DNA of 13,426 nt from a virus. Its lineage: Duplodnaviria > Heunggongvirae > Uroviricota > Caudoviricetes. Positions 1 through 13,426 of this stretch are shown here, piece after piece (position 1 is the stretch's first letter; every line of letters starts with the position of its first letter). The stretch is from positions 1-13,426 of the IMG/VR virus record IMGVR_UViG_651053022_000002. One strand, given 5' to 3'. The notes beneath the pieces are model-generated. The model was given only the letters and a program-made list of their open reading frames with translations. It did no database searches and was not told the origin of the DNA. A program made the translations under genes and the position numbers.

Positions 1-177
1 TTACTGTTGGCGCAGGGTACGGATACCCTCCCTGGCCTGTGCGATACAGGGCAACAGTGCTGCCGAATCTGTTTTATCCTCATCGTTGTCGAAGATAATT
101 CCCGATTCGCAGTCGATATTGTCCTGCAGCCACGTAATCAGAATATCCAGCGCTGTTTCCGTGGTTAATGATTTCAT
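1..177 (-). CDS. Small conserved protein (58 aa) downstream of the cbtA module; possibly DUF957/YpjJ-like
   Basis: ATG at 177..175 and TAA at 3..1, internal to the 181-aa ORF 1..546. Protein MKSLTTETALDILITWLQDNIDCESGIIFDNDEDKTDSAALLPCIAQAREGIRTLRQQ. Position matches the small gene that follows cbtA in CP4-type islands (from memory). No strong Shine-Dalgarno. Confidence 0.45.
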   Translation of the reverse strand: MKSLTTETALDILITWLQDNIDCESGIIFDNDEDKTDSAALLPCIAQAREGIRTLRQQ

Positions 178-193
178 GTTGTGAATTTCCGGA

Positions 194-682
194 TTACCAG
201 TCGAAAGTGGGTAAACCCGGCAGATATCCGGCACTGGCATCCAGATGAATGAGACTGACACCATAACACCGGATGAGTGTGACGACCAGACGACGGAACG
301 TTTTTGACAGCCCCAGGCGCTTAAGCCGCAGAACCGGGTATGACCACGTATCGGTACGTAACAGATAACCGGTACCGGTAAAATGAATCCATTCTGATTC
401 ACCGAAGTCACTGGTCTGGTGTGACAGCGAGTACAGCCAGGCGTTGTCCGTTTCCGTGATATGTGCGGTACTGCAGCGTATGCCGGTAAGGGCAACAAAT
501 GGTGGCGTGCAGTCTGCTGAGGTCCGGTCAGATTCATCAACAACACGAAGGGAGTAGCCGTTATCGCAGACCATGTTAATCAGTTCAGCGAGATTAACAC
601 CATCAATGTCAACGACAATGCGCCCCATGTTCAGCGCCTGCACGTTAACGCTGTCGGCTTCCAGCGTCAGGGCCAGTTTCAT
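194..682 (-). CDS. Hypothetical protein (162 aa), DUF5983-like partner downstream of cbtA
   Basis: ORF 194..682. GGAGG sits 7 nt upstream of the ATG at 682..680, inside the 3' end of cbtA, so the two genes overlap by 38 nt. Family name is recalled from annotation habit, not verified. Confidence 0.5.
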
Positions 683-1055
683 CGTTTCGCCTCCGGATGC
701 TTCCCAGGGTAATGTTATTTACCGTTCTGTAATTGTCGCGGATCATCAGGCCTGTTGCCCGGCGAGCCCGGAGGATATCGATGCTGTTTATTAACTGAGA
801 GTGGGTACAGGCGCTGAATCCCGGCAGGTCGGTACGTACCAGTGCGTATTTTTCCACGAGAAAGTTCACTGCATCACACAGTGAAATGCCTGCCTCAATA
901 TGCTGCTCAATCACACGTTCATCAGCGAACGGTGTGTCATTCAGCGTGAGGCCATAGTGCTGGTCCAGCAGTCGGGTGAGCAGTGTCTGCCAGATGGTGA
1001 CTGGAGACGGGCAGCACGATACCTCCCGTACATGCGTGTCGGGTAATGTTTTCAT
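645..1055 (-). CDS. cbtA: CbtA-family toxin of a type IV toxin-antitoxin system (YeeV/YkfI/YpjF-like), 136 aa
   Basis: Translation [103 protein letters not shown]... matches my recollection of E. coli YeeV across most of its length; the C-terminal tail is longer than the recalled ~124-aa form. Confidence 0.85.
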
Positions 1056-1144
1056 ACTGAAGATTTTCCTGATATGCAGAGATAAAAAATGGGACAGTGG
1101 CGTGGTGAAAACACCAGGCCGGAGCAGAAGGTTATTCTGGTGGT

Positions 1145-1513
1145 TTACTTTTTCGTTTCAGGTGTCGGATAAACAGCCAGATAAACGTAACCACAGGAGC
1201 CGAGGGTGTCGGCTTCACAGGTCAGCCCCTTCGCATACAGTGTCACGGTATGCTGATGGCGGGGATTCAGTTCACCACTGGTGAGCATTAATTTCAGTTG
1301 TTTCATCAGCAGCGGAAAGGCCTGGTCCAGAGGGTACGCATCCGCATCTCTGAACCGGCCTCTGATACCGGCACGGTCGGCAAGGTAATGCAACCGGTTA
1401 CCCTCCTGCACCAGACGGGCGCCGAAACAGGGCGTCACTGTGCAGGGTAGTCCCCACCAGGGATGGTCGTCATTGTCATCGGGATGCGTTGTCCCGGAAA
1501 GTGTGTCTGACAC
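1145..1513 (-). CDS. cbeA: CbeA-family antitoxin (YeeU/YfjZ-like), copy A, about 123 aa with a GTG start
   Basis: Core ...[35 protein letters not shown]...[12 protein letters not shown]...[43 protein letters not shown] is YeeU-like. GTG at 1513..1511 is preceded by GAGGA. The ORF-track extension to 1621 runs into an unrelated remnant. Sits 89 nt upstream of cbtA. Confidence 0.75.
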
Positions 1514-1562
1514 GATAAAATCCTCACAGAAAATCGGTGAATGATAGTTTAACGATGACGGG

Positions 1563-1665
1563 TCAGCCGGCGCGCAGACCGGCTTCGGTAAAGGTGTATT
1601 CGTTGATGAGCAGGACCTCATCCACAGCGGCGTCTGAGCTCTGCCAGTCGTACTCGTTTTCCGGG
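1563..1665 (-). pseudogene. 3' fragment of the 171-aa gene (duplicate of the 2479..2580 segment), not an independent gene
   Basis: ORF 1563..1772 ends ...[32 protein letters not shown], near-identical to the C-terminus of the 2479..2994 protein. Nucleotide similarity runs about 1561..1660 and then breaks. Confidence 0.5.
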
Positions 1666-1917
1666 TGACGGAACATCCAGCAGTCGGGTGAGCAGTGTCT
1701 GCCAGATGGTGACGGGAGACGGGCAGCGCGATGCCGCCCGTACGTGTATGCCTGCCTCAATATGCTGCTCAATCACACGTTCATCGGCAAACGGTGTGTC
1801 ATTCAGTGTGAGGCCATAGTGCTGGTCCAGCAGTCGGGACAGCAGTATCTGCCAGATTTCAACAGGAGACGGGCGAGAACTGGCCGCCTGCCCGGGTAAT
1901 ACAGGTAATGTTTTCAT
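1618..1917 (-). pseudogene. Chimeric cbtA remnant: 5' end of cbtA (about 57 codons) joined to a second partial copy of the cbtA 5' segment
   Basis: Translation begins [57 protein letters not shown] (cbtA N-terminus) and then re-enters ...[17 protein letters not shown]. The segment 1681..1746 is a near-copy of 970..1033. Confidence 0.6.
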
Positions 1918-2012
1918 ACTGAAGATTTTCCTGATATGCAGATATAAAAATGGAAAAGTGGCGTGGTGAAAACACCAGGCCGTAGCAGAAGGCTATTCTG
2001 GAGAGTTAATTT

Positions 2013-2190
2013 TTCATTTCGGGCGTCGGATAAACAGCCAGATAAACGTAATCACAGGAGCCCAGGGTATCGGCTTCGCAGGTCAGTCCTTTCGCATACA
2101 GTTCATTTCGGGCGTCGGATAAACAGCCAGATAAACGTAACCACAACTGCTGAGGGTATCGGCTTTGCAGGTCAGCCCTTTTGCATACAG
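2013..2190. repeat. Tandem direct repeat, 2 x 89 bp, diverged copies of the cbeA 3' end
   Basis: Copy 1 at 2013..2101 and copy 2 at 2102..2190 both start ttcatttcgggcgtcggataaacagccagataaacgtaa and end gcatacag; a third related copy lies at about 1160..1250 in cbeA copy A. Confidence 0.8.
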
Positions 2191-2463
2191 CGTGACGGTA
2201 TGCTGATGGCGGGGATTCAGTTCACCGCTGGTGAGCATGAGTTCCAGTTGTTTCATCAGCAGCGGAAAGGCCTGGTCCAGGTGGTACGCATCTGCATCGC
2301 TGAACAGGCCTCTGATACCGGCGCGGTCGGCAAGGTAATGCAACCGGTTACCCTCCTGCACCAGACGTGCCCCGAAACAGGGCGTCACGGTGCAGGGCAG
2401 TCCCCACCAGAGGCGGTCGTTATGGTCGTCGGGATAATTTGTCTCATGGAGTTTGTCTGACAC
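2083..2463 (-). CDS. cbeA: CbeA-family antitoxin, copy B (126 aa), with a C-terminus altered by the tandem repeat
   Basis: [99 protein letters not shown]... is YeeU-like. The protein ends ...PTPEMNCMRKD, whereas the adjacent repeat copy encodes the canonical-looking ...PTPEMKN stop. Confidence 0.75.
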   Translation of the reverse strand: MSDKLHETNYPDDHNDRLWWGLPCTVTPCFGARLVQEGNRLHYLADRAGIRGLFSDADAYHLDQAFPLLMKQLELMLTSGELNPRHQHTVTLYAKGLTCKADTLSSCGYVYLAVYPTPEMNCMRKD

Positions 2464-2478
2464 GATAAAGTCCTCAGG

Positions 2479-2994
2479 TCAGCCGGCGCGCAGACCGGCT
2501 TCGGTGAAGGTGTATTCGTTGATGAGAAGGGCCTCATCCACAGCGGCATCAGAGGTCAGCCTGTCGTACTCGTTTTCCAGCTGACGGTACAAGTCGCGCA
2601 GGGCTTCGCTGACAGCGGCTTCCGCATCGGCTGTCATAGCCTGACCAGTCGGACTGTTCCGGGTAACAGTGATATCCATGCTGTACGGATGGCAGTAACG
2701 TCCCCGGTGGTGGATTTCAGCCTGCAGTTGCCAGAAGTTACGTTTCTGCACCGCCTGCAGGGCATCCGCGATACGATGGAGTTCATGGTCCTGTGTGGCA
2801 TACTCCCGGAGCCTTCTGGCTGTTGCTGGCTGCCAGTGCCAGCGTCCTTCAAAACAGGCTCCGTCCCCCTGGCTGCAGAATCCGCTGAACCAGATGCACG
2901 CCTCTTCCATAAACCTGCCGTTGCTGAGCCGGAAAACGCGCTGGCGGAGGTCAATTCCGAAAATGCCACAGACCGCCCTGAAGTCCTCATACAC
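2479..2994 (-). CDS. Conserved hypothetical protein immediately upstream of cbeA (171 aa from a GTG); possibly disrupted at its 5' end
   Basis: ORF 2479..2994 begins at GTG 2994..2992; reading upstream in frame hits TGA at 3051..3049. An ATG-initiated ORF in another frame (ATGATG at about 3084, through a T7/A7 run at 3054..3060) covers the upstream sequence. Family not recognised. Confidence 0.45.
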   Translation of the reverse strand: MYEDFRAVCGIFGIDLRQRVFRLSNGRFMEEACIWFSGFCSQGDGACFEGRWHWQPATARRLREYATQDHELHRIADALQAVQKRNFWQLQAEIHHRGRYCHPYSMDITVTRNSPTGQAMTADAEAAVSEALRDLYRQLENEYDRLTSDAAVDEALLINEYTFTEAGLRAG

Positions 2995-3093
2995 GTTTTC
3001 ATACCAGTTGCTGTCAGCATGATGCTGACGGTACCAGTCGCGGGCTTTTCACGATAAAAAAACTTCGGCAATTTCATCATGATTTGAAACATT

Positions 3094-3117
3094 GGCACCC
3101 TGTTAGCAAGGGTGCCA
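3094..3117 (-). terminator. GC-rich hairpin (8-bp stem) at the par-module / TA-island junction; possible terminator after parR
   Basis: ggcaccct-gttagca-agggtgcc at 3094..3117, downstream of parR on the minus strand; the following U-tract is weak. Confidence 0.3.
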
Positions 3118-3165
3118 GAATGATGTGTTGGTCTGTATTTTATTAGTTCACATACAATTATCAGA

Positions 3166-3480
3166 TTATTCTGGGAATAAGGTCTGAATATTCTTTTTTA
3201 TTTTATAAAAATTGCATTCAACTCCGCTAGGCTGATTATCCTGGTATGTTTCCTTGATGCTAACGGTATTGAAGGGGAGGTTGTCCTCTGGCCATTCGGC
3301 CATCCAGTAGGCAAATGCTGGGTTGCGCTTTATGAGCGCTAGCCCAGCCAGAAAGGCCGCGCGTTGCGCGCGGCTGCGTTCGGAGGCTGGCAGGCTATCG
3401 AGGTAATTGCACGCCTCCTGTTCACTCTTGACGGCGGCGGGCTTCAGATAGAAACTTATCCGTCTGGTTGGTGTCGTCAT
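3166..3480 (-). CDS. parR: ParR-like centromere-binding protein of a type II (ParMR) partition system, 104 aa
   Basis: ATG at 3480..3478 lies 4 nt after the parM stop. MTTPTRRISFYLKPAAVKSEQEACNYLDSLPASERSRAQRAAFLAGLALIKRNP... resembles plasmid R1 ParR as I recall it (RRTIAFKL...LDSIPQGERSRLNRAALTAGLALY). The ORF-track extension to 3615 overlaps parM and is rejected. Confidence 0.75.
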   Translation of the reverse strand: MTTPTRRISFYLKPAAVKSEQEACNYLDSLPASERSRAQRAAFLAGLALIKRNPAFAYWMAEWPEDNLPFNTVSIKETYQDNQPSGVECNFYKIKKNIQTLFPE

Positions 3481-3484
3481 TGGT

Positions 3485-4444
3485 TTACTCCTTGTCCATT
3501 GCGTACAGCCCATTAACCAGAGCAAACTGTGGCACCCCGTCCGCGATGAAAGTCGCATTAACTCCGCAGACTTCGCGGATAGCGGGTGCCACAATCTCCG
3601 CCCCTCCACCGACAACCATCACCCGCCCGTAACCCGAAAAAACCGCCAGCGCGCGGATCACGCGTTGTTTCAGTGTTTCTTCCTTTTCACGAATAACCGC
3701 CATCAGGCTGGCGTAATGCGCGTCATTGTGGATGTGCTGGCGCAGCCAGGCTTCATCATGGCGATGTTCGATAATGGTATTGGCGATGTGGTGACTGGTG
3801 CGCATACCGTTAGTGGCCATCACCGACAGTACGGCATCGGCCATCAGGGAAACGCCTACGTGTGGATCGCAAAACACCTGGCTGATACCTGCCAGTTGCC
3901 CTTGAACCTTTGCCACATCCAGCGTGGTTCCGCCTAAATCCACAATCAGCAGGGATTCAAACGGACTCATGTCAGCCAGTGCTTTAAAGCCAGCCGGAAT
4001 GGATTCAGGCATAACCCGCACGTTACGGATAGTGAATGCTTCGCCGTTCTGGTATTCCACCGGGCGCATAACGTTCGCTTTTTTGCGGTTGATGTTGGCC
4101 ATGTCCGGCTGTGCGTTTGTGTCGAAATACTCGCTCAGTGGCAGGGTGACAACCACATCCACCTCCTGTGGCGTGATGCCTGATTTGACCAGCGCGTGAT
4201 GAATGGCGATTACATTCACATCGCTGTACTGGTATTGCGTGTCGGTCGTCTGGACAAAGCGATCGCTAACCGGATCAAAACCATAGCGCACGCCATCAAG
4301 CATGTAGTTCGCGGGCTGCATGCCACCGAACGGCGCAGACCATTCCGACTTGAAGCTGTTCGGGCTGATGGCGTTGCGGCGTTCGCCATTCTCAGTCCAT
4401 GCCAGCTTGATGTTGGTGGAGCCGTCGTCGATACAAATTTTCAT
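3485..4444 (-). CDS. parM: ParM/StbA-like actin-type plasmid segregation ATPase, 319 aa
   Basis: MKICIDDGSTNIKLAWTENG...ISPNSFKSEW...YSDVNVIAIHHAL...VVVTLPLSEY...LIVDLGGTTLDV... carries the actin-fold phosphate motifs (IDDGSTNIK, DLGGTTLD) and closely tracks my recollection of R1 ParM. AAGGAAAA Shine-Dalgarno precedes the ATG at 4444. Confidence 0.9.
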   Translation of the reverse strand: MKICIDDGSTNIKLAWTENGERRNAISPNSFKSEWSAPFGGMQPANYMLDGVRYGFDPVSDRFVQTTDTQYQYSDVNVIAIHHALVKSGITPQEVDVVVTLPLSEYFDTNAQPDMANINRKKANVMRPVEYQNGEAFTIRNVRVMPESIPAGFKALADMSPFESLLIVDLGGTTLDVAKVQGQLAGISQVFCDPHVGVSLMADAVLSVMATNGMRTSHHIANTIIEHRHDEAWLRQHIHNDAHYASLMAVIREKEETLKQRVIRALAVFSGYGRVMVVGGGAEIVAPAIREVCGVNATFIADGVPQFALVNGLYAMDKE

Positions 4445-4462
4445 GTCGCTTTTCCTTATGTT

Positions 4463-4590
4463 GATTAATTAATCGTTTACGGGATTCTGAAATCCCGTTT
4501 TTGCCTGTTTTGTGCGCGCTTCATATATCGCTGCGCGTTTTTTGCTCATTTACGGGATTCGTAAGTCCCGTTTCTGTCTGTTTTTTGTTT
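4463..4590. repeat. Centromere- or operator-like repeats: the AT palindrome gattaattaatc plus two copies (73-bp period) of a hairpin-containing unit
   Basis: gattaattaatc at 4463..4474. Unit A: acgggatt-ctga-aatcccgt at 4479..4498 followed by T-rich sequence. Unit B: acgggatt-cgta-agtcccgt at 4552..4571, same flanks (tttacgggattc...cccgttt...ctgtttt). Unit A is in the rep-parM intergenic region; unit B is inside the rep 3' coding end. Confidence 0.7.
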
Positions 4591-7343
4591 CCACTGGTCA
4601 GGCCACCCCGCAGCAGGTCTGCTTTGCGGCTGGCGCGTTCAGTGGTTTCACTGATTCTCTGTGCGTGCTCTGCGTCGCGGATGGCGCGCAGCATGTCAGA
4701 AAGCACGGTAACGGGTGTTTTCATGGTGTTCTGGCCCTGCTGAAGTGTGGATGCCAGGCGTGCGGCGGCTTCAGGGTCTGATGCCCCCAGCTGTGCCAGA
4801 TAGCTGGCGACCGGGTTATGGCGGATCTCCGTGCTGCTTACGCCATGATTACGGCTCAGGCGCTGCCAGAGCTGCGTGATTCGGCTGTCCGGGCGGGTAT
4901 CCGGTTTGCGTACAATTTCAAATCCCTGCGGTGCAATGATGCTGCCGTCAACGTACAGACTGCCGCCCCGTAACAGGTGCTGCATCTGTTGTTCACCGAT
5001 ATGCAGGCCGAGAGATTCAGCAGACTCCCGCCATTCTTTAGCGAGTAATTCGTGGTTATCAGGCAAAGGCCGCTGCTGTTTGCGGCTCTGTGTCCAGCTC
5101 TGCATTTCATCGCTGCTGTTTTTTGCCTGTTTGTCACGAAGCGAACGCATCAGCGCCCGGCGTTCGTGTCGTTTCAGTGAGCGCATCCATTCGTTCACTT
5201 CAACGCCGTCAGGGAGCTGCGGCCACGGTGCTGGCCGTTCTTCCGGCTGTTCTGTCCCGTTGTTGTCCGTTTCCTGTACACGGGGACAGTTATTGCCACG
5301 AGTCCAAGGGGCGGCAGGGCCGCCCTGAAGGTCAAAACCATTTTCGCGGGCGCTGTCTTCCGCTTCCGGTTTACGTCTTACCAGCTTCCAGTTATCCGGA
5401 TGCGTGCACACACGGGAGGATTCCCCGATGAGTGGTGACCAGATCCCGTAAATCTGTACGCTCTGTTCGCCGTAATCGTTCAGCTCATCTGCGAGGTCGT
5501 AGGCGGTGCGAATCAGGTAGTCCTTGCGTGGAACAAGCACGCCACCCTGTTTTTCAATGTAGGTGGCAAAACACCCGGCATCGGCGGCAGCGAGTACCGC
5601 ATCCATTGCATCATCTTTCAGCCGTTGCGGGCCTTCCGGATTGCGTGCCATCTGGCTGGCAAGGCGGCGCAGTTCACGCCACACCTGACGGGAGGGGATG
5701 CCAAAGAACTGGAACTGACGGACCCGGTGAAGGCGCGCCCAGCCGATGGCGCGCTCCACGCTCTCGGCCATTGATTTTCCGGTTTCGTGGTCCACGCGTG
5801 GCTTGCCCGTTTTCGGGTCGATGCCATCCACGGCGCGGCTGTCCAGGTTCTTTCCGATGTAGGTGGCGATGTAGCTGGTTGGCGTGCCTTTTGAGCCGTC
5901 GACATACTCCACCTTAAAGCGCGGAGTAATATCATTGCCCAGCTCGTGGCGGTCTTCCTGAATGGCAATATCGCGGGTATGGGACACAATGGTGTCGATT
6001 TCTTCCGGATGTGCAAAGACCATCATATGCCAGTGCACGGTGCCGTCATGATGAGGCTCCACCGTGCGGATGCCATACCAGCGCAGGCCGTCGCGGTTCA
6101 GTTTTTTGCGGACCGCCGCAAAAAACGTGTTAACCAGGTAATCGCTGGAGTCGCGCATTGTGGCCCCGTTCCATTTGGGATTCGGATGACCGTTCTCCGT
6201 TGTGGCGTGGTATTTTGACGGGCAGGTGACAGTCAGAAACACCGCTTTGTCGCCACGGGCTTCGGCCAGAAGTTCCAGTCCCTTCATGGTGGCCATCATT
6301 TCTGCCTTACGGTGAACCGGGTTACTTACTCCCGCGTAATACACTGTCTCGAGATCAATCGTGAACCCGTCTTCATTTTCCAGCATGAAACTTTTCAGGA
6401 AATCGCGTGTTTTCTCGCGCTGTGCGCGAAACTCGCTTAACGCGTCCTGGCTCAGATAGGGTGATGTTTTTCTGGAAACCAGACAGGCGGCGCGGAGTTG
6501 TTCTTCTCTCCACTCGCAACGTAACAGCCACAGTTTGCGTTTCCACCATTCCGCACAGGTCAGGCGAAGGATTGCGCCCGGCAGCAGCTCCGTGTCCGGT
6601 TCGTTCCTCCGGTCTTTGTCTGTTGTCAGTGCGTCATAATGTGGAGGCATGGCGTGCAGGTGTAACGCCATGCGGGCCAGCATCTGATACGCCTTCAGGG
6701 TTACATCCATGGTCAGCTCGCCATCGGTCGCGCCAAAGCCATCGCAGAGTTTTTCGAAGGTGCTGCTGAACATCGCCGCCGTCATGGTGGCCAGCGTCTG
6801 TATCTGGTGTTTGTTGAGCTGCGGCAGGTAAAGCAAATCGTCCAGGCGTTCGCGTCCGGCAAGGGAGCGATAACCCGGTGTCAGCCAGCGTCCGTCAGTG
6901 CTATCCAGACGTTCGAATATTTTGCGCAGGGTTCCGCGTGCATAGCGTTCCGCCTGCCAGCTCTTTTTGCCTTTCCGGCGATCGGCTTCCTGTTTTTTGC
7001 GCAGGAAGGAGAGGTGGCGAATAAGCGGATCGCGCAGATAGGACGGCAGCAGGCGCAGCGAGGCCATGGCTTCATCCACCGCGCCACGTGCCTGTTTTCT
7101 GGCGTCTCCTGCCAGTGTGATGGTTTTGTCCTGTTTTTCCTGTGCGTCCAGGCTTTTATTAATCAGGTTGCCCAGCGGCGTGGCTGAGAACGCCGCATCA
7201 GCCATTTCCTGGCGGCGCTCGTTCTCTGCCCGGTAGGCATCCAGCCAGGAGGAAAGCGCGGATTCAGGAGCGGGGATCCCCGTTCCTTCACGCCCCACTG
7301 CGTGGCGCGGTTGTTGCCAGTCCCTGAGGTACTCTGCCGTCAT
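4521..7343 (-). CDS. Rolling-circle replication initiator (HUH endonuclease, phage P2 gpA / phiX174 gpA superfamily), 940 aa
   Basis: Contains the HUH metal-binding motif (TVHWHMMVF) and, about 50 residues later, the paired-tyrosine motif SYIATYIGKNLD (YxxxY) typical of superfamily-I rolling-circle Reps. No Walker A motif was seen, so it is not a P4 alpha-type primase-helicase. Confidence 0.85.
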   Translation of the reverse strand: MTAEYLRDWQQPRHAVGREGTGIPAPESALSSWLDAYRAENERRQEMADAAFSATPLGNLINKSLDAQEKQDKTITLAGDARKQARGAVDEAMASLRLLPSYLRDPLIRHLSFLRKKQEADRRKGKKSWQAERYARGTLRKIFERLDSTDGRWLTPGYRSLAGRERLDDLLYLPQLNKHQIQTLATMTAAMFSSTFEKLCDGFGATDGELTMDVTLKAYQMLARMALHLHAMPPHYDALTTDKDRRNEPDTELLPGAILRLTCAEWWKRKLWLLRCEWREEQLRAACLVSRKTSPYLSQDALSEFRAQREKTRDFLKSFMLENEDGFTIDLETVYYAGVSNPVHRKAEMMATMKGLELLAEARGDKAVFLTVTCPSKYHATTENGHPNPKWNGATMRDSSDYLVNTFFAAVRKKLNRDGLRWYGIRTVEPHHDGTVHWHMMVFAHPEEIDTIVSHTRDIAIQEDRHELGNDITPRFKVEYVDGSKGTPTSYIATYIGKNLDSRAVDGIDPKTGKPRVDHETGKSMAESVERAIGWARLHRVRQFQFFGIPSRQVWRELRRLASQMARNPEGPQRLKDDAMDAVLAAADAGCFATYIEKQGGVLVPRKDYLIRTAYDLADELNDYGEQSVQIYGIWSPLIGESSRVCTHPDNWKLVRRKPEAEDSARENGFDLQGGPAAPWTRGNNCPRVQETDNNGTEQPEERPAPWPQLPDGVEVNEWMRSLKRHERRALMRSLRDKQAKNSSDEMQSWTQSRKQQRPLPDNHELLAKEWRESAESLGLHIGEQQMQHLLRGGSLYVDGSIIAPQGFEIVRKPDTRPDSRITQLWQRLSRNHGVSSTEIRHNPVASYLAQLGASDPEAAARLASTLQQGQNTMKTPVTVLSDMLRAIRDAEHAQRISETTERASRKADLLRGGLTSGNKKQTETGLTNPVNEQKTRSDI

Positions 7344-7349
7344 AGTGAT

Positions 7350-7715
7350 TTACTTCGTCATGCCATTCAGGGTGTCGCGGCAGACTGTAGCCAGCCGCTG
7401 AATTTCCAGCACGGTGTCTTCTGTGTCGGCATGGCGATGTGTGATGCGGATGCTGTCGGCAATCACATCGACGATTGCAGAGGATGGGCGCTGGTAAATG
7501 CCAATAACGGACGGGGTGCCACCTTCAATGCGGTAAAGCCTGTAATTTCCCTCGTGGCTGTCAATCATGTAGCGACCATCAATAACAATCTTTCCGTCAG
7601 CGAGCTGCGGTACAGGCAGGGATTTCAGGTACATGTCATAACGATCACGCACGCGAGCGGCAAGATCACGTTCTGTATTGAGCAGGTATTCAAGAAAGTC
7701 GTTGGCGAGAATCAT
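7350..7715 (-). CDS. Hypothetical protein (121 aa) immediately upstream of rep
   Basis: ORF 7350..7715 with AAGAGGA 7 nt before the ATG; its stop lies 6 nt before the rep start, suggesting co-transcription. Confidence 0.6.
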   Translation of the reverse strand: MILANDFLEYLLNTERDLAARVRDRYDMYLKSLPVPQLADGKIVIDGRYMIDSHEGNYRLYRIEGGTPSVIGIYQRPSSAIVDVIADSIRITHRHADTEDTVLEIQRLATVCRDTLNGMTK

Positions 7716-7787
7716 TGCGGCAATCCTCTTGTTACAGATGTGCGAAGGCCTCCCGCCGCAAGGTGCAGGAAAGGCCCGGAACAGGAA

Positions 7788-8018
7788 TTAATGGAGTTTG
7801 TTTTGCTGCTGGATGAGCTGTTGAAGCTCGTGCAGATCATCCGCCAGATAGCTGAAAACAGAGGCGGAATAAATGTTTGATAGTGCGTGGCTGCGCTCAT
7901 GCAGCATATTGATGTGCATGATTTGCGCGACGCGTGATGCGCGGGAAAGTCTGCGGTTGATTTCAGTCTGGATGTGACGACGCTCCGCGATAGCGCGGTG
8001 CTGTTTGCGGTTTGCCAT
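7788..8018 (-). CDS. Small basic protein (76 aa), possible DNA-binding regulator
   Basis: ORF 7788..8018, MANRKQHRAIAERRHIQTEINRRLSRASRVAQ..., Arg/Lys-rich N-terminus; AAGGGG Shine-Dalgarno upstream. Confidence 0.5.
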   Translation of the reverse strand: MANRKQHRAIAERRHIQTEINRRLSRASRVAQIMHINMLHERSHALSNIYSASVFSYLADDLHELQQLIQQQNKLH

Positions 8019-8196
8019 GGTGTGGCCCCTTGTGTAGTAAGTTGTGAAAACTCACCATCCAGAGCTGCGAAACTGTGGGTGGCGAGACGTACGAGGTTCG
8101 CAGTACCGGCTACACAAGAACCCGGCCCGACCGAAGTCGGCCCCGTACGCCCCGCCATAATTCTGACGCGAAAAAAACGTGGCAATACAGTACGCA

Positions 8197-8218
8197 CAAA
8201 AAAACCGCTGGCGCGGTT
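8197..8218 (-). terminator. Candidate intrinsic terminator on the minus strand inside the early operon
   Basis: Minus strand reads aaccgc-gcca-gcggtt followed by TTTTTTT (plus coordinates 8203..8218 stem-loop, 8197..8202 T-tract), about 120 nt after the 8341..8640 gene. Confidence 0.5.
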
Positions 8219-8340
8219 GTGCGCTTGTGTAGTCAGCAGGCTGCGAAACCCGGCACCCGTTTTATGAGGTGCAGCGGAAATGTAACCTGACTGATTGCGG
8301 CATGGCAAGCGGTTTTTTTGTGTGTGCATGCTCTGGTTTC

Positions 8341-8640
8341 TTACTGGTTCAGAAAAAAATCAAAAACCTTGTCAATACGTTGCAGCAGCTCTTGCTGTAT
8401 TGCTTCCGGCGTTTCCGGTTCGCCTGGCACCTCCAATGTCGCGCAGAAATCAGCGATTTCATGATGGAGCGTCAGGCGAATGGCAGGAGCCGTGGTTCTG
8501 GCGTGCTCCAGCTCATCCAGCAATGCCAGCGCAGCAGACGGCGAGAGCATTGCGCGAAATGCCAGTAATTTTTGAGGTGTTGCCATTCGTTGCAGGGCAA
8601 ATGCCAGTTCGCGTAGCTTCTGGTGGTTGATGGTGCTCAT
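8341..8640 (-). CDS. Hypothetical protein (99 aa)
   Basis: ORF 8341..8640 with GAAGGAAG Shine-Dalgarno; its start overlaps the upstream gene's stop by 4 nt. Confidence 0.6.
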   Translation of the reverse strand: MSTINHQKLRELAFALQRMATPQKLLAFRAMLSPSAALALLDELEHARTTAPAIRLTLHHEIADFCATLEVPGEPETPEAIQQELLQRIDKVFDFFLNQ

Positions 8641-8903
8641 GTTCTGGCTTCCTTCAGTAGCTGGTTAAACATGTGAGTAAGTGGATTGCTACACCCGAAC
8701 GGCATCGGGTTTACGTGGTAAGAAGCCTGGCCTCCAGTTTTGCGAGCGCGACCACCTGTGCTGCGGTTTGTTCTGATGACTAAGCCGCCGCGCCAAAGTT
8801 GGCGTAACTCAGCATTAATGGCTGTGGTTGGAGTATTCAGTGCTGCGGCGATCTCTCCGCCGCTACACCCCGGATGAGTAGCGATGTAGTCCAGAATGGT
8901 CAT
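8637..8903 (-). CDS. Hypothetical protein (88 aa), possible winged-helix DNA-binding protein
   Basis: ORF 8637..8903, AGGAG 6 nt before the ATG; MTILDYIATHPGCSGGEIAAALNTPTTAINAELRQLWRGGLVIR is an HTH-like segment; 4-nt overlap with the neighbouring gene. Confidence 0.6.
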   Translation of the reverse strand: MTILDYIATHPGCSGGEIAAALNTPTTAINAELRQLWRGGLVIRTNRSTGGRARKTGGQASYHVNPMPFGCSNPLTHMFNQLLKEART

Positions 8904-9103
8904 CTGCGTGGCTCCTGTACCTGTCGGATAAGGTTTACCCGCGCCACATTAGTGGCGCAGAAGTAAGTGCCGTCAGTGAGGTAGATGTGGTGTGCATCCT
9001 TTTCCGAACGATGTTTGTCGATAGTGGTAATCAGGCGTTCGTCGACCTCGTATTCGCGCCCTCTGGAGGTAAAGCGAACGACGGGAAAATGCTTAATTGC
9101 CAT
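8900..9103 (-). CDS. Hypothetical protein (67 aa)
   Basis: ORF 8900..9103 with AAGGGGG Shine-Dalgarno. Confidence 0.55.
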   Translation of the reverse strand: MAIKHFPVVRFTSRGREYEVDERLITTIDKHRSEKDAHHIYLTDGTYFCATNVARVNLIRQVQEPRR

Positions 9104-9126
9104 TGCGCCCCCTTTGTCCAGTAACT

Positions 9127-9537
9127 CTATGCGTTAAATACGGTGCACTGTGCGTCATCAATGAATGCGACTTGAGAGCGCTCTATCAGGCGGAGATTTG
9201 TCAGAATTTCTGATTCCCTTATGGGGTGAGGAGTGATCAGGTATTTATCCTGTAACCCGGCGATAATGGTGTATCGCTGTAGCTCCGAGCCAATTGTGTA
9301 AATAAGGCGTCCGGTGTTAGACAAATCCAGTCCGGTGACTGGTTGTGTTCTGAGAACCGCCAGTTCAGCATCCTGTTTTGCGATAATTTCGGCTGCTTCT
9401 GCCGTGACTCTTGCGACTATCAGTGTGTGGGTTGCGACGTCCATATGATTATTTGCTATGGCTTTTTTCGCTACTTCGTTTTCTGTCTTTGAAATTTCTT
9501 TCAGTGCTCTGATGATACCTTCTTCTTTTGCGTGCAT
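9127..9537 (-). CDS. Hypothetical protein (136 aa)
   Basis: ORF 9127..9537 with GGAGA 7 nt before the ATG; lower G+C than the rep region. Confidence 0.6.
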   Translation of the reverse strand: MHAKEEGIIRALKEISKTENEVAKKAIANNHMDVATHTLIVARVTAEAAEIIAKQDAELAVLRTQPVTGLDLSNTGRLIYTIGSELQRYTIIAGLQDKYLITPHPIRESEILTNLRLIERSQVAFIDDAQCTVFNA

Positions 9538-9630
9538 TTTTGTATCTCCGTTATTTGCGTGTGCGAATACCTCCGTTAATACGGATGGTTTTCACGTTTT
9601 CTTATTTAATTTGATGTTTTATTTGTATCG

Positions 9631-9744
9631 TTATTCACCAGTGAAAAAACGTTCAATCTTTTTTACTGAATGAATAATTCGCACAATGCCAATTGCGCAG
9701 ACCACTGAAATAATCAGAACAATCCATGACATAAATATACTCAT
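9631..9744 (-). CDS. Unlisted small hydrophobic peptide (37 aa), probably a single transmembrane helix
   Basis: My own translation: MSIFMSWIVLIISVVCAIGIVRIIHSVKKIERFFTGE. The ATG at 9744..9742 overlaps the upstream stop at 9743..9741 (ATGA coupling); GGGGA lies 7 nt upstream. Too short for the supplied ORF track. Confidence 0.4.
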   Translation of the reverse strand: MSIFMSWIVLIISVVCAIGIVRIIHSVKKIERFFTGE

Positions 9745-9983
9745 GCGATATTCCCCAGCTTATACGGTTCAATATGTTCCCCGCATTCTGCGGCACAGAT
9801 CAGCTCGGAAAGTTCGTTAAGTGCATCCAGATCATCAGCGTAAAAAGCCACGTCATACAGACTCCGGATTGCCCTGGTCAATGAGTCACGGGCTGCACGT
9901 TCAGCATGAGCGCCTGATGCACTTAAGCGAAAATAAAAACGCTCAAGTGCTTTGTTAATGAGAGTTTTATATTCTTTGCCCAT
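9741..9983 (-). CDS. Hypothetical protein (80 aa from the internal ATG)
   Basis: ORF 9741..10034 trimmed to the ATG at 9983..9981 (MGKEYKTLINKALERFYFRL...), which avoids overlap with the upstream gene. Confidence 0.5.
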   Translation of the reverse strand: MGKEYKTLINKALERFYFRLSASGAHAERAARDSLTRAIRSLYDVAFYADDLDALNELSELICAAECGEHIEPYKLGNIA

Positions 9984-9994
9984 CGCAACGCCCT

Positions 9995-10273
9995 TTAATC
10001 TGCTTTCTGAATTTCTGCTTCTGAATCCATACAAATAATTTCGATATAGGGTTCATCGCCATTAGTCTTACGTGCTTTTTCCGCTTCGCTAATGATTTCG
10101 TGTACAGTCTGGTACGGAAGTTCTACGGTCAGGCGCGTGCCGTTCAGATAAACGTAAGTAGCTGCATTTTTTTCGGATGGAACAACTCCGTCAATGGCTG
10201 ATGCGCGTAATAACAGTTCACCGCGAAAATCAATAAAACGGATAAATACACCTTGTGCATGCTCTTTGGTCAT
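9995..10273 (-). CDS. Hypothetical protein (92 aa from the internal ATG)
   Basis: ORF 9995..10333 trimmed to the ATG at 10273..10271 (MTKEHAQGVFIRFIDF...), with AGGTG upstream and a 10-nt gap to the preceding gene. Confidence 0.5.
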   Translation of the reverse strand: MTKEHAQGVFIRFIDFRGELLLRASAIDGVVPSEKNAATYVYLNGTRLTVELPYQTVHEIISEAEKARKTNGDEPYIEIICMDSEAEIQKAD

Positions 10274-10283
10274 AAAGCACCTG

Positions 10284-10634
10284 TTATAAATCAGCCTGTT
10301 TAATAAAACTTTGCCCGTGAAGCAGACGATCAACCGTGCGAAGTGCTTCGTATAATGTGAAATCCTGCCCGAACTGATTGTCGCCGTTGCTCAGTGCAAA
10401 AATGCGGTTTCCGGTAAATGGGTTGCGCTGGCATCTGTGAACCACGATTCCTGCTTTTTCAATCAGCCAAGTGTGTTCACCAATTTGTTTTACTGGGTAG
10501 CCATCCGGCGTTGCGTGTGTTTCGCTCAGGCTGTAGCGAGAGTTGCTACGTGATGCACTGGTAGCGAAACGGTTAGCATGGCGTTCCGCACCGTTGCGGA
10601 AGCGCTGCTGTGAAGAATTGCGCTGTAGTTTCAT
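10284..10634 (-). CDS. Hypothetical protein (116 aa), first gene of the leftward early operon
   Basis: ORF 10284..10634; the ATG at 10634 sits just downstream of a palindrome-containing promoter region. Confidence 0.55.
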   Translation of the reverse strand: MKLQRNSSQQRFRNGAERHANRFATSASRSNSRYSLSETHATPDGYPVKQIGEHTWLIEKAGIVVHRCQRNPFTGNRIFALSNGDNQFGQDFTLYEALRTVDRLLHGQSFIKQADL

Positions 10635-10645
10635 ATTAAAACTCT

Positions 10646-10737
10646 GTACCTTCGGTAAGGTGTACTCGTGTCACCTTGTATTGATTTGTGGTATTTTTTT
10701 TGTGTGTCTAGGACTTGGACTGGCCGGTTCAGGTCCT
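10646..10737. promoter_or_regulatory. Divergent regulatory region with two inverted repeats
   Basis: accttCGGTaaggt at 10648..10661 (5-bp arms); imperfect inverted repeat aggacttggac / gttcaggtcct at 10710..10737 (9 of 11 positions complementary, 6-bp spacer). Lies between the minus-strand early operon and the plus-strand 63-aa ORF. Confidence 0.35.
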
Positions 10738-10771
10738 GGCTTATGTTTAATTAAATTGTTAAGAGGTTTTC

Positions 10772-10963
10772 ATGTCAGAAGATAAAAAAGTTGTTAATTT
10801 GTTGAGTGAACTTAGTGCTGCTCTGGATAACATTAACCCTCCCAGGGTAAAAACGACGGGTGATAAAGACGCATTAAACACAGAGATTCATATATTACTG
10901 GCGTTAGTAACTGACAAAATTCAGCGTAAATACCCACCTGTCACACAACTGGTTGATTTTTAA
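10772..10963 (+). CDS. Small hypothetical protein (63 aa), AT-rich, the only plus-strand gene in the interior
   Basis: ORF 10772..10963, MSEDKKVVNLLSELSAALDNINPPRVKTTGDKDALNTEIHILLALVTDKIQRKYPPVTQLVDF, with AAGAGG 6 nt before the ATG; convergent with the 141-aa gene. Confidence 0.5.
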   Translation: MSEDKKVVNLLSELSAALDNINPPRVKTTGDKDALNTEIHILLALVTDKIQRKYPPVTQLVDF

Positions 10964-10969
10964 TTTGAT

Positions 10970-11392
10970 TTATGCCGGGCTGCTCCCGGCATCTTCTACC
11001 TGCCATAATGTCTCGTCACCTGATAGAGCAAAACGAAATGAGTGAAGTATATCCCCCCGAGAGAAGCTCACGGCTACAGCTGCGGGAAAGTCAAATATAA
11101 TCCCACCTTCATTTTTAAAACGATTACGCAATTGATAGGCTATCGGTTTGATTTGTGCAGGAAGAGTATCTATATCTCTTCCATTGACAACAGAATCTTT
11201 GTTTTCAAGTACTGATTTAGCGATTAGATATAGATGCCAGTAACTGGTTACAATTGTTACTCCTGTGATGTGTCGTAAATTAATTGCAATTCGTCCGTTA
11301 TTATGTTTTTCCGCAAGGTATTTCAGGTTATCAATTAATGCTTGGTCATTTTTTGAAATAGTTATTGTGAAATCTGACGTGTTTGTTTTCAT
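10970..11392 (-). CDS. Hypothetical protein (141 aa) in an AT-rich segment; candidate cargo (moron) gene
   Basis: ORF 10970..11635 trimmed to the ATG at 11392..11390, 4 nt after the upstream stop. Protein MKTNTSDFTITISKNDQALIDNLKYLAEKHNNGRIAINLRHITGVTIVTSYWHLYLIAKSVLENKDSVVNGRDIDTLPAQIKPIAYQLRNRFKNEGGIIFDFPAAVAVSFSRGDILHSFRFALSGDETLWQVEDAGSSPA. I counted 23/60 G+C in line 11101..11160 versus 41/60 in rep line 5701..5760. Confidence 0.6.
   Translation of the reverse strand: MKTNTSDFTITISKNDQALIDNLKYLAEKHNNGRIAINLRHITGVTIVTSYWHLYLIAKSVLENKDSVVNGRDIDTLPAQIKPIAYQLRNRFKNEGGIIFDFPAAVAVSFSRGDILHSFRFALSGDETLWQVEDAGSSPA
10972..10992 (+). terminator. Hairpin (8-bp stem) just after the 63-aa ORF; possible terminator overlapping the 3' end of the convergent 141-aa gene
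   Basis: atgccggg-ctgct-cccggcat at 10972..10992, 9 nt after the TAA at 10961..10963; the following tract (cttct) is only weakly U-rich. Confidence 0.3.
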
Positions 11393-11396
11393 ACGA

Positions 11397-11918
11397 TTAG
11401 TTGCCTCTGTTGTTTCTGAGTTGGTCCAGTTTTGAGCTTCTGCCTGTATAAACTCGCTTACCGTTAATGGTCTGGCAGTCTTCTTTATTAGCTGGAGAGA
11501 ACTTCCTTTTCTGGCGGTCATACGTCCAGTAACTTTTCCAGTTGTGCCATTCTGGGGGCTCGTGCTCTGGTAGCTCATCAGCCAACTTGTCCCACTCTTT
11601 GGCGTTAAACCACCATACTCCGTCTGAGTTTTCATCTTCCGGGTTTGTGCGCGTCTTGTGTCCCGGCATTTGACCGCGATGAATGGCTACGCGCAGTGCA
11701 GATTTTGTTAGCCCAATATATGCCGCGCCTTTTTCCAGAGAGCAAAGCCCGGCGATCGGACCATCCAGCCGCAAAGTCGCTCCTTTTTTGTAGGAACGCT
11801 TTTTCTTGTTTTCTTCGTGCTCGTCGTCGTTGGCGGCATCAATGGATCCGCTGAGTGCGTCACTTTCCTGAAGTGGTTGGTGGTCAGATAACTCTTTATC
11901 GGCAATGAAGTCCCGCAT
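11397..11918 (-). CDS. Excisionase/Cox-like HTH protein (173 aa) with an acidic N-terminus, divergent from the repressor
   Basis: ORF 11397..11918 with AAGAGGA before the ATG. The segment GAAYIGLTKSALRVAIHRGQMPGHK...GVWWFNAKEWDKL looks like an Xis/AlpA/MerR-type HTH with wing; its position mirrors cox/apl in P2/186-type switches. Confidence 0.6.
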   Translation of the reverse strand: MRDFIADKELSDHQPLQESDALSGSIDAANDDEHEENKKKRSYKKGATLRLDGPIAGLCSLEKGAAYIGLTKSALRVAIHRGQMPGHKTRTNPEDENSDGVWWFNAKEWDKLADELPEHEPPEWHNWKSYWTYDRQKRKFSPANKEDCQTINGKRVYTGRSSKLDQLRNNRGN

Positions 11919-11977
11919 TTGTTATCCTCTTGCGTTGGTGCGCTTGTCGCGCCTTGTGATGGTTTGTTTTGGCTTGT

Positions 11978-12001
11978 AAAGATAACCAAAAGGTTATCTT
12001 T
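11978..12001. promoter_or_regulatory. Perfect palindromic operator (10-bp arms, 4-bp spacer) in the divergent promoter region
   Basis: aaagataacc-aaaa-ggttatcttt at 11978..12001; a further half-site ggttatctt at 12025..12033 overlaps the regulator start codon. Confidence 0.6.
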
Positions 12002-12022
12002 GTGCGAGAGGTTAATACTCAA

Positions 12023-12364
12023 ATGGTTATCTTGTCAATAGACTACGCAAAAAAGTTACGTCAGATACGTAAGGCGGAAGGGTTAACACAAAAGCAGTTT
12101 GCGGATATTACTGGGTTGTCTTTGGCAACCATAAGGAATTACGAATCGGGGCAAAAGAACGCTAGAGCAAAAATCGTTGAGGCGGTTCTGCAAGTCGATC
12201 GCTTTGAAAAATACATGCTGTGGCTAATAAAAGATAAGACGCTACCTGTCGCCGGGCAGATTGCTCCGGCTCTCTCTCTTGATGGATCTATTCAGTCGGA
12301 GGGCGATCAGGTTTCAATCGGTATTACCCAAAAATCACCCCGATCAGGCCGCAATGTTGGCTGA
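12023..12364 (+). CDS. XRE-family helix-turn-helix transcriptional regulator (immunity repressor-like), 113 aa
   Basis: The segment LRQIRKAEGLTQKQFADITGLSLATIRNYESGQK is a canonical XRE/Cro-C1 HTH. First in-frame ATG at 12023 (the ORF track begins at a TTG at 11969). Same orientation as int, divergent from the Cox-like gene. Confidence 0.75.
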   Translation: MVILSIDYAKKLRQIRKAEGLTQKQFADITGLSLATIRNYESGQKNARAKIVEAVLQVDRFEKYMLWLIKDKTLPVAGQIAPALSLDGSIQSEGDQVSIGITQKSPRSGRNVG

Positions 12365-12433
12365 CTCTACACATTGAGCGAATTACATATCGCAAGGAGT
12401 GTTTAGTTAATTTATCCGTTGGAGGGGCTAATC

Positions 12434-13426
12434 ATGTCGATTAAGCAACTCAAAGACGGACGTTATCAGGTCGATGTCAGACCGCAGGGGGCGGAAGGAA
12501 AGCGGATTCGAAAAATCTTTGCCCTGAAATCAAAGGCTCAGGAGTTTGAGAAGTATGTGTTACAGAACTTTCATGACAAGCCATGGCAGGCTAAGCCAGC
12601 TGATCAGCGGCGATTATCAGAGCTGCTTGATGCGTGGTGGATGCTTGATGGGCGTAATCAGGCTTACGGGGATAGCTACAGGGTTAGGCTAGGGAAGGTT
12701 GTTCGTGAAATGGGAGATCCTCGCGCCAGTCAGATGACGCGAAAATTTATGCTTGAATATCGGTCAGAGAAATTACAGGCCGGATTAATGCCGTCCAGTA
12801 TTAATCGTGACTTATGCGTACTGTCTACCATGTTCACGGTGCTGATTGAAGCTGAGGTCTTTCACAACGCGAACCCTGTACGCGGTATACGAAAACTGAA
12901 AGTTCAGAACACAGAGATGGCCTTTCTTTCTGATGATGAGATTGAACGGCTTCTTGAGCGACTGGAGGGTGATGTGCGTCGTGTTGCCATTCTGTGTCTT
13001 TCTACTGGTGCCCGATGGAGTGAAGCATCGGAACTACGTGGAGAGCATATCGTTGGCAACCGGGTGACGTTCTTTAACACCAAAAACGGAAAATCCCGTT
13101 CGGTTCCTGTGGCGGATTCGGTCGTGCCTCTGATTAAAACCCGTCGAACGGGGTTATTGTATCAGGTTGATTATCTGAAGTTCCGGGAGATTCTTCAGGA
13201 GGTGAAACCGGATTTGCCGAAGGGGCAGGCTACGCATGTCATGCGTCATACATTTGCCACACACTTTATGATGAATGGCGGAAATATTGTTACGTTGCAA
13301 CGAATCCTGGGGCACGCAACGATTCAGCAAACAATGACGTACGCTCATTTTTCGCCGGACTTTTTACTGGACGCGATCAACTTTAATCCGCTGGCTGAAA
13401 GTGTCCATAAACTGTCCATCGATTAG
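12434..13426 (+). CDS. int: Tyrosine site-specific integrase, 330 aa
   Basis: GGAGGGG lies 7 nt before the ATG at 12434. N-terminal arm-binding-like region (MSIKQLKDGRYQVDVRPQGAEGKRIRKIF...), catalytic signatures (ARWSEASELR; HVMRHTFATHF; LGHATIQQTMTYAHF). The stop codon is the last three bases of the window. Confidence 0.9.
   Translation: MSIKQLKDGRYQVDVRPQGAEGKRIRKIFALKSKAQEFEKYVLQNFHDKPWQAKPADQRRLSELLDAWWMLDGRNQAYGDSYRVRLGKVVREMGDPRASQMTRKFMLEYRSEKLQAGLMPSSINRDLCVLSTMFTVLIEAEVFHNANPVRGIRKLKVQNTEMAFLSDDEIERLLERLEGDVRRVAILCLSTGARWSEASELRGEHIVGNRVTFFNTKNGKSRSVPVADSVVPLIKTRRTGLLYQVDYLKFREILQEVKPDLPKGQATHVMRHTFATHFMMNGGNIVTLQRILGHATIQQTMTYAHFSPDFLLDAINFNPLAESVHKLSID

Follow-up and report, generated by a model that had tools for sequence, protein, structure and literature searches.

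A convergent two-gene cassette directly after cox in a P88-like Escherichia coli prophage encodes two small, undescribed protein families

Introduction

What is a short AT-rich segment with two facing genes doing in the early region of a P2-type prophage, and what kind of proteins might it encode? The question is raised by positions 1 to 13,426 of the virus record IMGVR_UViG_651053022_000002, a stretch of 13,426 nucleotides (nt) called the window in this text. The element is a P88-like (Xuanwuvirus, Peduoviridae) P2-type phage, an Escherichia coli prophage integrated beside dmsA. The records vB_EcoM-569R5 and vB_EcoM-705R2 and an O25b:H4-ST131 (sequence type 131) prophage record are 100% identical to it over window positions 9400-12400. 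A preliminary description of the window had drawn attention to a compositionally foreign, self-contained cassette with a convergent gene pair, and had preferred for it a function in anti-phage defence, superinfection exclusion or as a toxin-antitoxin (TA) system.

Two parts of the answer are well supported. The cassette is a horizontally acquired two-gene accessory module that was placed directly after the cox stop codon, displacing a gene for a membrane protein of 68 amino acids (aa). Both of its genes encode real proteins, which belong to two tiny, undescribed families that always occur together and in one fixed arrangement. A third part is tentative: the large protein may be an early-lytic effector of the binding type, and the small acidic protein its separately transcribed cognate antagonist or partner. 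Coordinates are collected in Table 1.

Composition and borders of the cassette

Guanine plus cytosine (G+C) content is 0.382 over 10640-11400 and 0.515 over the whole window, and 0.7% of all 761-nt windows have values as low or lower. At third codon positions (GC3) it is 0.29 in the 140-aa gene and 0.31 in the 63-aa gene, against 0.54 in cox, 0.48 in the DUF4761 gene and 0.64 in gpA. The region 9300-11550 is broadly below average, but the contrast of the cassette to its immediate neighbours is still sharp. In G+C, in GC3 and in its rank among the windows the cassette thus differs from the surrounding phage genome, as a moron is expected to. The low-G+C segment had been proposed from hand counts, which were exact (23/60 in 11101-11160 and 41/60 in 5701-5760), and the formal sliding-window and GC3 calculations bear it out. 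The cassette is the lowest patch of the window in G+C, although not the sole AT-rich one; a second patch at 9451-9750 (G+C 0.34) spans a 93-nt gap before a 136-aa open reading frame (ORF) as well as a 37-aa ORF (9631-9744, minus strand), for which a membrane protein is annotated.

The borders are given by the strain PRO_A-1504-6M-A_ESBL (L003), which holds the same prophage at dmsA and lacks exactly the cassette, so that window positions 9400-10712 and 11400-12500 are contiguous there. Composition and this precise indel together confirm the claim of a foreign insert with sharp borders. A transposable element or miniature inverted-repeat transposable element was considered and rejected: no terminal inverted repeats can be read at the cassette ends, and a repeat scan, whose region ended at 11450, found none either.

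The minus-strand early genes follow one another in the order cox, 140-aa ORF, DUF4761 gene, 92-aa ORF, DUF4754 gene, further small genes and gpA. The preliminary description had put the AT-rich segment between the immunity switch and the early operon; because cox is the first gene of the operon and the cassette comes after it, the cassette instead lies inside the operon, between cox and the DUF4761 gene, on the repressor side and about 3.3 kb from gpA. It directly adjoins the cox stop codon (TAA, 11397-11399). The sequence CTAGACACACAAAAA at its left border has a counterpart directly 3' of the cox stop in phages with the 68-aa gene (AAC TAA ACACACAAAAA TG). Since this relic sits at the left border, the cassette entered right after the cox stop, with loss of most of the 68-aa gene.

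Slot variation and spread in Escherichia coli

The preliminary description had suggested that related elements be compared at this position, and the comparison found the slot to be variable: it holds the cassette, a 68-aa gene with two transmembrane (TM) segments, or nothing. The 68-aa gene lies on the operon strand in the dmsA-site prophages of UMNK88, C11 and SMBL and in the phages Shae_phiSM and Chuche; P88 has no gene there, just a 37-nt gap. Two hydrophobic segments are present in each of three translated copies of the 68-aa protein (L004-L006), and the gene has a G+C content of 0.44-0.45. Presence, absence or replacement between conserved flanks, which is looked for in a moron, is therefore found at this slot. 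The Salmonella prophage that also has the gene pair (see below; locus L013) has an analogous 58-aa membrane ORF at 5672-5848.

The cassette is held at 95-100% identity by 272 of 5,426 complete E. coli genomes, 270 of which hold most of it. The copies are always chromosomal and single, and the hosts listed include several of type O25b:H4 or ST131. Both ORFs were full-length in all 20 copies examined, which represent 10 haplotypes.

The state of PRO_A-1504-6M-A_ESBL could be an ancestral empty site or a secondary deletion. Its junction keeps the C of GGCAAC and the second CTAG copy; both copies of the short CTAA/CTAG repeat context are present, and its right flank is 100% identical to that of a cassette-bearing prophage. 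For these two reasons a secondary deletion is more likely, although it is not proven. In the same strain Cox has 185 aa (L003 2532-3089), the last 12 of which (LDTQKIPQINTR) are translated from what used to be intergenic DNA, because loss of the cassette takes away the cox stop codon.

The gene pair in five lineages

The same pair was found in four other lineages at 20-45% identity, namely a Salmonella P2-like prophage (L012), a read-assembly contig (L014) and the IMG/VR contigs L025 and L036. The view that the two genes form a unit is upheld by this recurrence of the convergent pair. Large homologues have 136-146 aa and small ones 60-70 aa in the four other lineages. In 5/5 lineages the large gene has the orientation of its neighbours, and the small gene faces the other way. 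The 3' ends of the genes abut or overlap in the other lineages, the overlap being 4 nt in L012, L025 and L036. In L012 the order is int, C-type helix-turn-helix (HTH) gene, Cox (135 aa), small membrane ORFs, a 138-aa gene, the convergent 62-aa ORF and, further on, gpA. L025 has genes of 136 aa and 60 aa behind a CI-type switch, and L036 has genes of 146 aa and 62 aa behind a 192-aa Cox that is related to the Cox of the window. On the 2-kb contig L014 neither cox nor a switch gene is visible; its convergent ORF has 70 aa and shares about 31 nt with the large gene. In the window and in 3/4 of the other lineages (L012, L025 and L036) the flanks are visibly those of a phage early operon, preceded by a switch of the Cox or CI type.

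That both ORFs are translated is supported by how they diverge. The small proteins of the lineages are homologous to one another (with the window protein as BLASTP query, E is 7e-16 for L012 and 6e-14 for L036), and the large proteins share 20-32% identity between lineages. In every pairwise comparison and for both genes, the proportion of nonsynonymous differences (pN, 0.35-0.57) is below that of synonymous differences (pS, 0.65-0.86), the latter being saturated.

L012 and L025 share 90-95% identity in both flanks, as far as about codon 13 of the large and of the small gene, and cannot be aligned in between. Because the conserved flanks end at about codon 13 in both genes, the pair is exchanged as a unit, with the variable parts moving together. 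Direct repeats of 19-36 nt bracket the module in L012, L025 and L036; they are formed by the ribosome-binding site (RBS) and initial codons that the large gene shares with the next early gene. The repeats of 31-36 nt lie at 5986-6021 and 6751-6786 in L012 and at 3744-3774 and 4451-4481 in L025. The L012/L025 repeat comprises the RBS and the first seven codons (MK[IL]T[TI]ED), and the next early gene encodes a 259-aa or 292-aa protein.

These patterns bear on an explanation in which the genes do not depend on each other in function and only history links them: the large one would be an ordinary early accessory gene (e.g. an anti-defence or host-takeover inhibitor) and the small one a classic lysogen-expressed moron. 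All five lineages keep the convergent, abutting pair even though the distance from cox and the type of switch differ, the recombination breakpoints inside the 5' ends of both genes mean that the variable parts were swapped together, and neither gene was found without the other. Independence therefore seems unlikely, although the large protein does look like phage early inhibitors, which are small, acidic to neutral, fast-evolving, without homologues and encoded in the early operon, and the small gene has the layout of a moron, with its own RBS, a candidate promoter and a trailing hairpin.

Searches for relatives and known families

Outside the five lineages, no relatives were detected. HMMER over 1.84 billion cluster representatives gave one true remote relative of the large protein, the 138-aa Salmonella protein of L012 with 34% identity (E 3e-7), and a profile search added a 139-aa relative, that of L014. 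A further hit of the exhaustive search, P0015 (1,073 aa), was rejected as a spurious repeat match. In a word-indexed search of 5.8 billion proteins, both proteins matched only E. coli copies at at least 96% identity, and a metagenome scan also matched E. coli copies only. No member of the pair turned up when 185,579 GTDB species-representative genomes were scanned twice. An exact-pattern scan of IMG/VR with the conserved 5' end of the small gene returned only the two contigs already known, and the large protein of Salmonella, compared by tblastn with 50,697 phage records, matched only the three from E. coli. A distant search for the L036 allele in E. coli genomes gave no match, and no paralogy of the cassette genes with neighbouring early genes was found.

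The statement that neither protein belongs to a recognisable family also holds, as neither has a match in Pfam, NCBIfam, PHROGs, PADLOC or PDB sequences. These searches, and those of the same libraries with the family alignments, gave sub-threshold noise only (e.g. DUF1408, E 0.022), and no homology to a toxin or antitoxin family was detected there for the window proteins or the family members. No HTH, CII or DNA-binding family was detected in the five large proteins. A resemblance of the N-terminus of the small protein to a ribbon-helix-helix was visual only, was supported by no search and was discarded. The RefSeq accessions of the two proteins are not mentioned in the literature that was found.

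Both proteins are acidic to neutral and hydrophilic (grand average of hydropathy -0.17 and -0.20), without a TM segment or any hydrophobic stretch, so that the membrane character of SieB- or Rex-like proteins is missing. The family alignment of the large protein has only 13 invariant columns, mostly hydrophobic, with few invariant polar residues and no enzymatic motif. The gene had been described as having 141 aa; the gene is present, and the figure counts 141 codons, i.e. 140 aa and the stop.

Transcription signals and proposed mechanism

The ATG of the large gene (11390-11392) follows the cox stop by 4 nt, and no consensus sigma-70 promoter was found for the gene on its strand in a scan of 10200-12200. 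For both reasons the large gene should depend on the early promoter Pe and should be silent in the lysogen. The sole consensus sigma-70 match in the scanned region, TAGATA-18-TACAAT at 11225-11254 on the plus strand, is antisense within the large gene and is probably a chance match in AT-rich DNA. No terminator-like site was found on the early strand inside the cassette, and early transcription should for this reason run through to the replication genes.

The 63-aa ORF had been described as the only interior plus-strand gene, and it is indeed the sole plus-strand gene among the early genes. Upstream of it the motif TGTGnTATnTT is invariant in the five-lineage alignment; it occurs once on both strands of the 13.4-kb window, against 0.13 occurrences expected. 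We take it as a candidate extended -10 promoter element for the small gene. The T-run at 10692-10701, between this candidate element and hairpin i, differs in length by 1-2 T among E. coli copies. Counterparts of hairpin i lie 25-35 nt upstream of the small gene and are strong in L012 (z-score, z, -4.6) and L036 (z -5.2) and weak in L014 (z -0.7) and L025 (z -0.2).

A hairpin between the two genes had also been noted earlier. The hairpin (hairpin ii) is real; it is found 9 nt past the stop of the small gene, where the final codons of the large gene are, and is thus not strictly intergenic. A hairpin after the small-gene stop is kept in 5/5 lineages despite unrelated sequences (z -2.5 to -4.9). 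In the window it is followed by TCTTCT on the plus strand and by an A-rich run 3' on the minus strand. From its sequence, hairpin ii is a weak terminator candidate for the small gene, and it should not stop early transcription because of the A-rich run that follows on the minus strand. Rfam and tRNA scans gave no match.

The expected silence of the large gene in the lysogen bears directly on the function preferred in the preliminary description, lysogen-expressed anti-phage defence or superinfection exclusion. P2-like phages are known reservoirs of defence systems (PMC9122126), and an AT-rich cargo cassette that sits at a variable prophage slot and is kept intact in 270 genomes would suit such a role. 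However, a gene repressed together with Pe in the lysogen argues against a classic lysogen-expressed defence moron as far as the large gene is concerned. PADLOC-DB 2.0 matched neither protein at E up to 1, the slot differs from the known defence and moron loci of P2-like phages, A-Q and G-FI (PMC9122126, PMC3573123), and both proteins lack the membrane segments and enzymatic domains that are common in proteins for exclusion or abortive infection. The two genes face each other and do not form an operon as in type II TA systems, and none of the results shows a TA, defence or exclusion function. We regard a defence function as rather improbable. The description of the cassette as self-contained is only half true: the large gene depends on transcription of the early operon, and the small gene has its candidate promoter just beyond the border of the indel.

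The preferred reading is that of an effector and its antagonist. The large protein would be made only when Pe fires, and it would act as an early-lytic effector by binding rather than catalysis, as suggested by the few invariant polar residues and by the lack of an enzymatic motif and of a TM segment. The small gene would be transcribed in the opposite direction from its own weak extended -10 promoter, and its transcript would end at hairpin ii in the 3' end of the large gene. The two transcription units would run into each other, and their expression is therefore predicted for opposite states: in the lysogen, where Pe is repressed, the small gene would be active, and in lytic growth the large gene, when Pe transcription passes antisense through the small gene. 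The small protein may be the cognate antagonist or partner, since both proteins are exchanged between phages as one block, and it would keep a leaky effector harmless in lysogens, as an antidote does.

An extension of this reading, distinctly unlikely as it stands, is an allele-specific layer of immunity between competing P2-like phages. The large protein, made early, would be a weapon or switch component at infection, and the small protein made by the lysogen would neutralise the cognate allele only. By analogy with polymorphic toxin-immunity pairs, such a specificity module would diversify by cassette exchange.

The same signals could also be read as lysis-lysogeny control like that of 186 CII/pE or lambda CII/pRE, in which the large protein would activate the backward promoter and the transcript would run antisense through cox toward the repressor and integrase genes. 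In phage 186, cII sits directly after the Cox/Apl gene, and the large gene occupies this position, but the large proteins are acidic and, as said, have no recognisable DNA-binding domain. The candidate promoter faces C and int and, like promoters that need an activator, has no -35; its flank is 88-90% identical between lineages whose large proteins are only 32% identical, whereas a DNA-binding activator would be expected to change along with its site. The weak U-tract of hairpin ii makes read-through conceivable, yet relatives with the same Cox, C and Int are without the cassette, and the protein-coding constraint on the small ORF is left unexplained. We consider this explanation very improbable.

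Several points weigh against the effector-antagonist reading. The candidate promoter of the small gene has no good -35, the consensus scan did not list its motif, and TGTGGTATTTT lies in the flanking DNA just outside the indel. Some lineages, L012 and L014 in particular, have a weak U-tract 3' of hairpin ii. The interaction of the two proteins is proposed from their linkage and joint exchange, and tight physical linkage could give the same pattern. Homology searches give no function for either protein. AlphaFold2 models were too poor to use (predicted local distance difference test 37.6 from the single sequence and 51 from a 4-sequence alignment) because sequence depth was lacking, and Foldseek on these poor models found no match below E 0.4 in PDB and BFVD. 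Substitutions among the E. coli copies are too few for selection to be judged (about 8 nonsynonymous to 5 synonymous). Finally, the cassette is absent from one natural prophage, that of PRO_A-1504-6M-A_ESBL, and is hence dispensable for the prophage.

The surrounding prophage

Table 1. Features of the cassette, its slot and its neighbourhood (window positions unless a contig is named).
Feature	Position	Strand	Remarks
AT-rich cassette, 687 nt	10713-11399		exact gap against L003 by BLAST; junction ambiguous by 1 nt; G+C 0.38
Large gene, 140 aa	10970-11392	-	runs with early operon; hypothetical protein in public records
Small gene, 63 aa, isoelectric point 5.6 (acidic)	10772-10963	+	convergent on large gene; hypothetical protein in public records
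Shine-Dalgarno sequence AAGAGG of small gene	10761-10766	+	5 nt before ATG; read from the sequence
TGTGGTATTTT, candidate extended -10 element (TGn-TATTTT) for small gene	10687-10697	+	just upstream of hairpin i
Hairpin i, 14-bp stem-loop and T-rich run	10708-10739	+	33 nt upstream of small-gene ATG; terminator-like; folding free energy (dG) -20.9 kcal/mol, z -4.3
Hairpin ii, TGCCGGG-CTGCT-CCCGGCA	10972-10992	+	dG -13.7 kcal/mol, z -2.5
Relic of post-cox sequence, CTAGACACACAAAAA	10697-10711	-	left border of cassette; 14/15 local match to L004, p ~0.002 by shuffling
68-aa slot gene	L004 2310-2516, L005 2588-2794, L006 2310-2516, L008 4364-4570, L009 4154-4360	operon strand	usual occupant of the slot
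Cox-family regulator, 173 aa	11397-11918	-	first gene of early operon; Pfam Phage_Cox 1.9e-07 (above curated cutoff); phrog_23196 1.3e-116
DUF4761 early gene	10284-10634	-	left flank of slot; Pfam DUF4761 2.2e-68; conserved in P88-like phages
gpA replication endonuclease	4521-7343	-	early gene
C-type immunity repressor (HTH_3)	12023-12364	+	Pfam HTH_3 2.7e-11 and public annotation; divergent from cox
Integrase	12434-13426	+	dmsA comes next in full records

Some further observations concern the neighbours of the cassette. Cox of the window, with 173 aa, is unusually long and has an acidic N-terminal extension of about 55 residues before the Phage_Cox domain (residues 58-129); Cox has 141 aa in P88 and 95 aa in Shae_phiSM and Chuche. 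Against PADLOC it gives a weak match to mad1 (E 0.0016). At 7712-8329 on the minus strand public records conflict, one showing a 205-aa ORF and the other a 76-aa 'derepression protein' (about 7788-8018) with the remnant of an ash-family pseudogene.

Window positions 1-4500, below gpA, are the classical A-Q variable locus of the prophage. According to the PV468777 annotation it contains genes for a ParM-type segregation protein (319 aa, 3485-4444), for partition/stability and for a DUF4760 protein, besides hypothetical genes, and its G+C content falls to 0.40 at 3001-3300. Partition systems are present at the A-Q locus in about one-quarter of P2-like phages (Rousset et al., PMC9122126).

Significance and comparison with known systems

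Moron and defence loci of P2-like phages have been described at A-Q and G-FI (PMC3573123, PMC9122126). The slot directly behind cox adds a third variable cargo site to these two, and the cassette adds two new protein families with no detectable relatives beyond the five lineages among 1.84 billion cluster representatives. The fixed convergent layout and the block-wise exchange of the variable parts lead to a testable hypothesis of a cognate effector and antagonist tied to the lysis-lysogeny state. About 5% of complete E. coli genomes carry the E. coli allele in intact form, and the hosts listed include several O25b:H4-ST131 clinical isolates. If the cassette influenced prophage stability, competition between phages or the fitness of the host, this would be of consequence for the pandemic ST131 lineage. 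The natural deletion strain PRO_A-1504-6M-A_ESBL is available for comparison.

The cassette resembles the morons of P2-like phages (old, tin, Z/fun and neaT of the CFT073 prophage phi-b0847) in being extra, un-ameliorated low-G+C DNA between conserved genes that is absent or replaced in relatives. As with the small gene, neaT points against the flanking operon (PMC3573123). The described P2 morons lie at A-Q or G-FI, whereas the cassette lies directly after cox and has its large gene wired into the early lytic operon, so that this half of it is not an autonomous unit for expression in the lysogen. The 68-aa two-TM gene of UMNK88-type prophages, Shae_phiSM and Chuche shares the slot, but it is a single gene of unrelated sequence on the operon strand, encodes a membrane protein and is less AT-rich.

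With type II TA and effector-immunity pairs, such as P4 gop/beta as cited in PMC9122126, the cassette shares two small adjacent genes that are inherited together, fast divergence, exchange as a unit and one small acidic partner. It differs from type II TA systems, which are co-transcribed operons, in that its genes are convergent in 5/5 lineages; its proteins resemble no toxin or antitoxin family, and the candidate antidote has no recognisable DNA-binding domain.

Control by antisense transcription offers the other close likeness. In lambda cII/oop, P22 ant/sar and 186 pR/pE, as in the cassette, a backward unit overlaps the 3' end of an early lytic gene, and expression of the two should be mutually antagonistic. 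The early gene of the cassette is not a recognisable regulator, and the position after Cox/Apl fits the 186 CII/pE module without an HTH activator being found in the five members. In contrast to these systems, the backward unit of the cassette, which matches nothing in Rfam, encodes a conserved protein under purifying selection and not an RNA alone.

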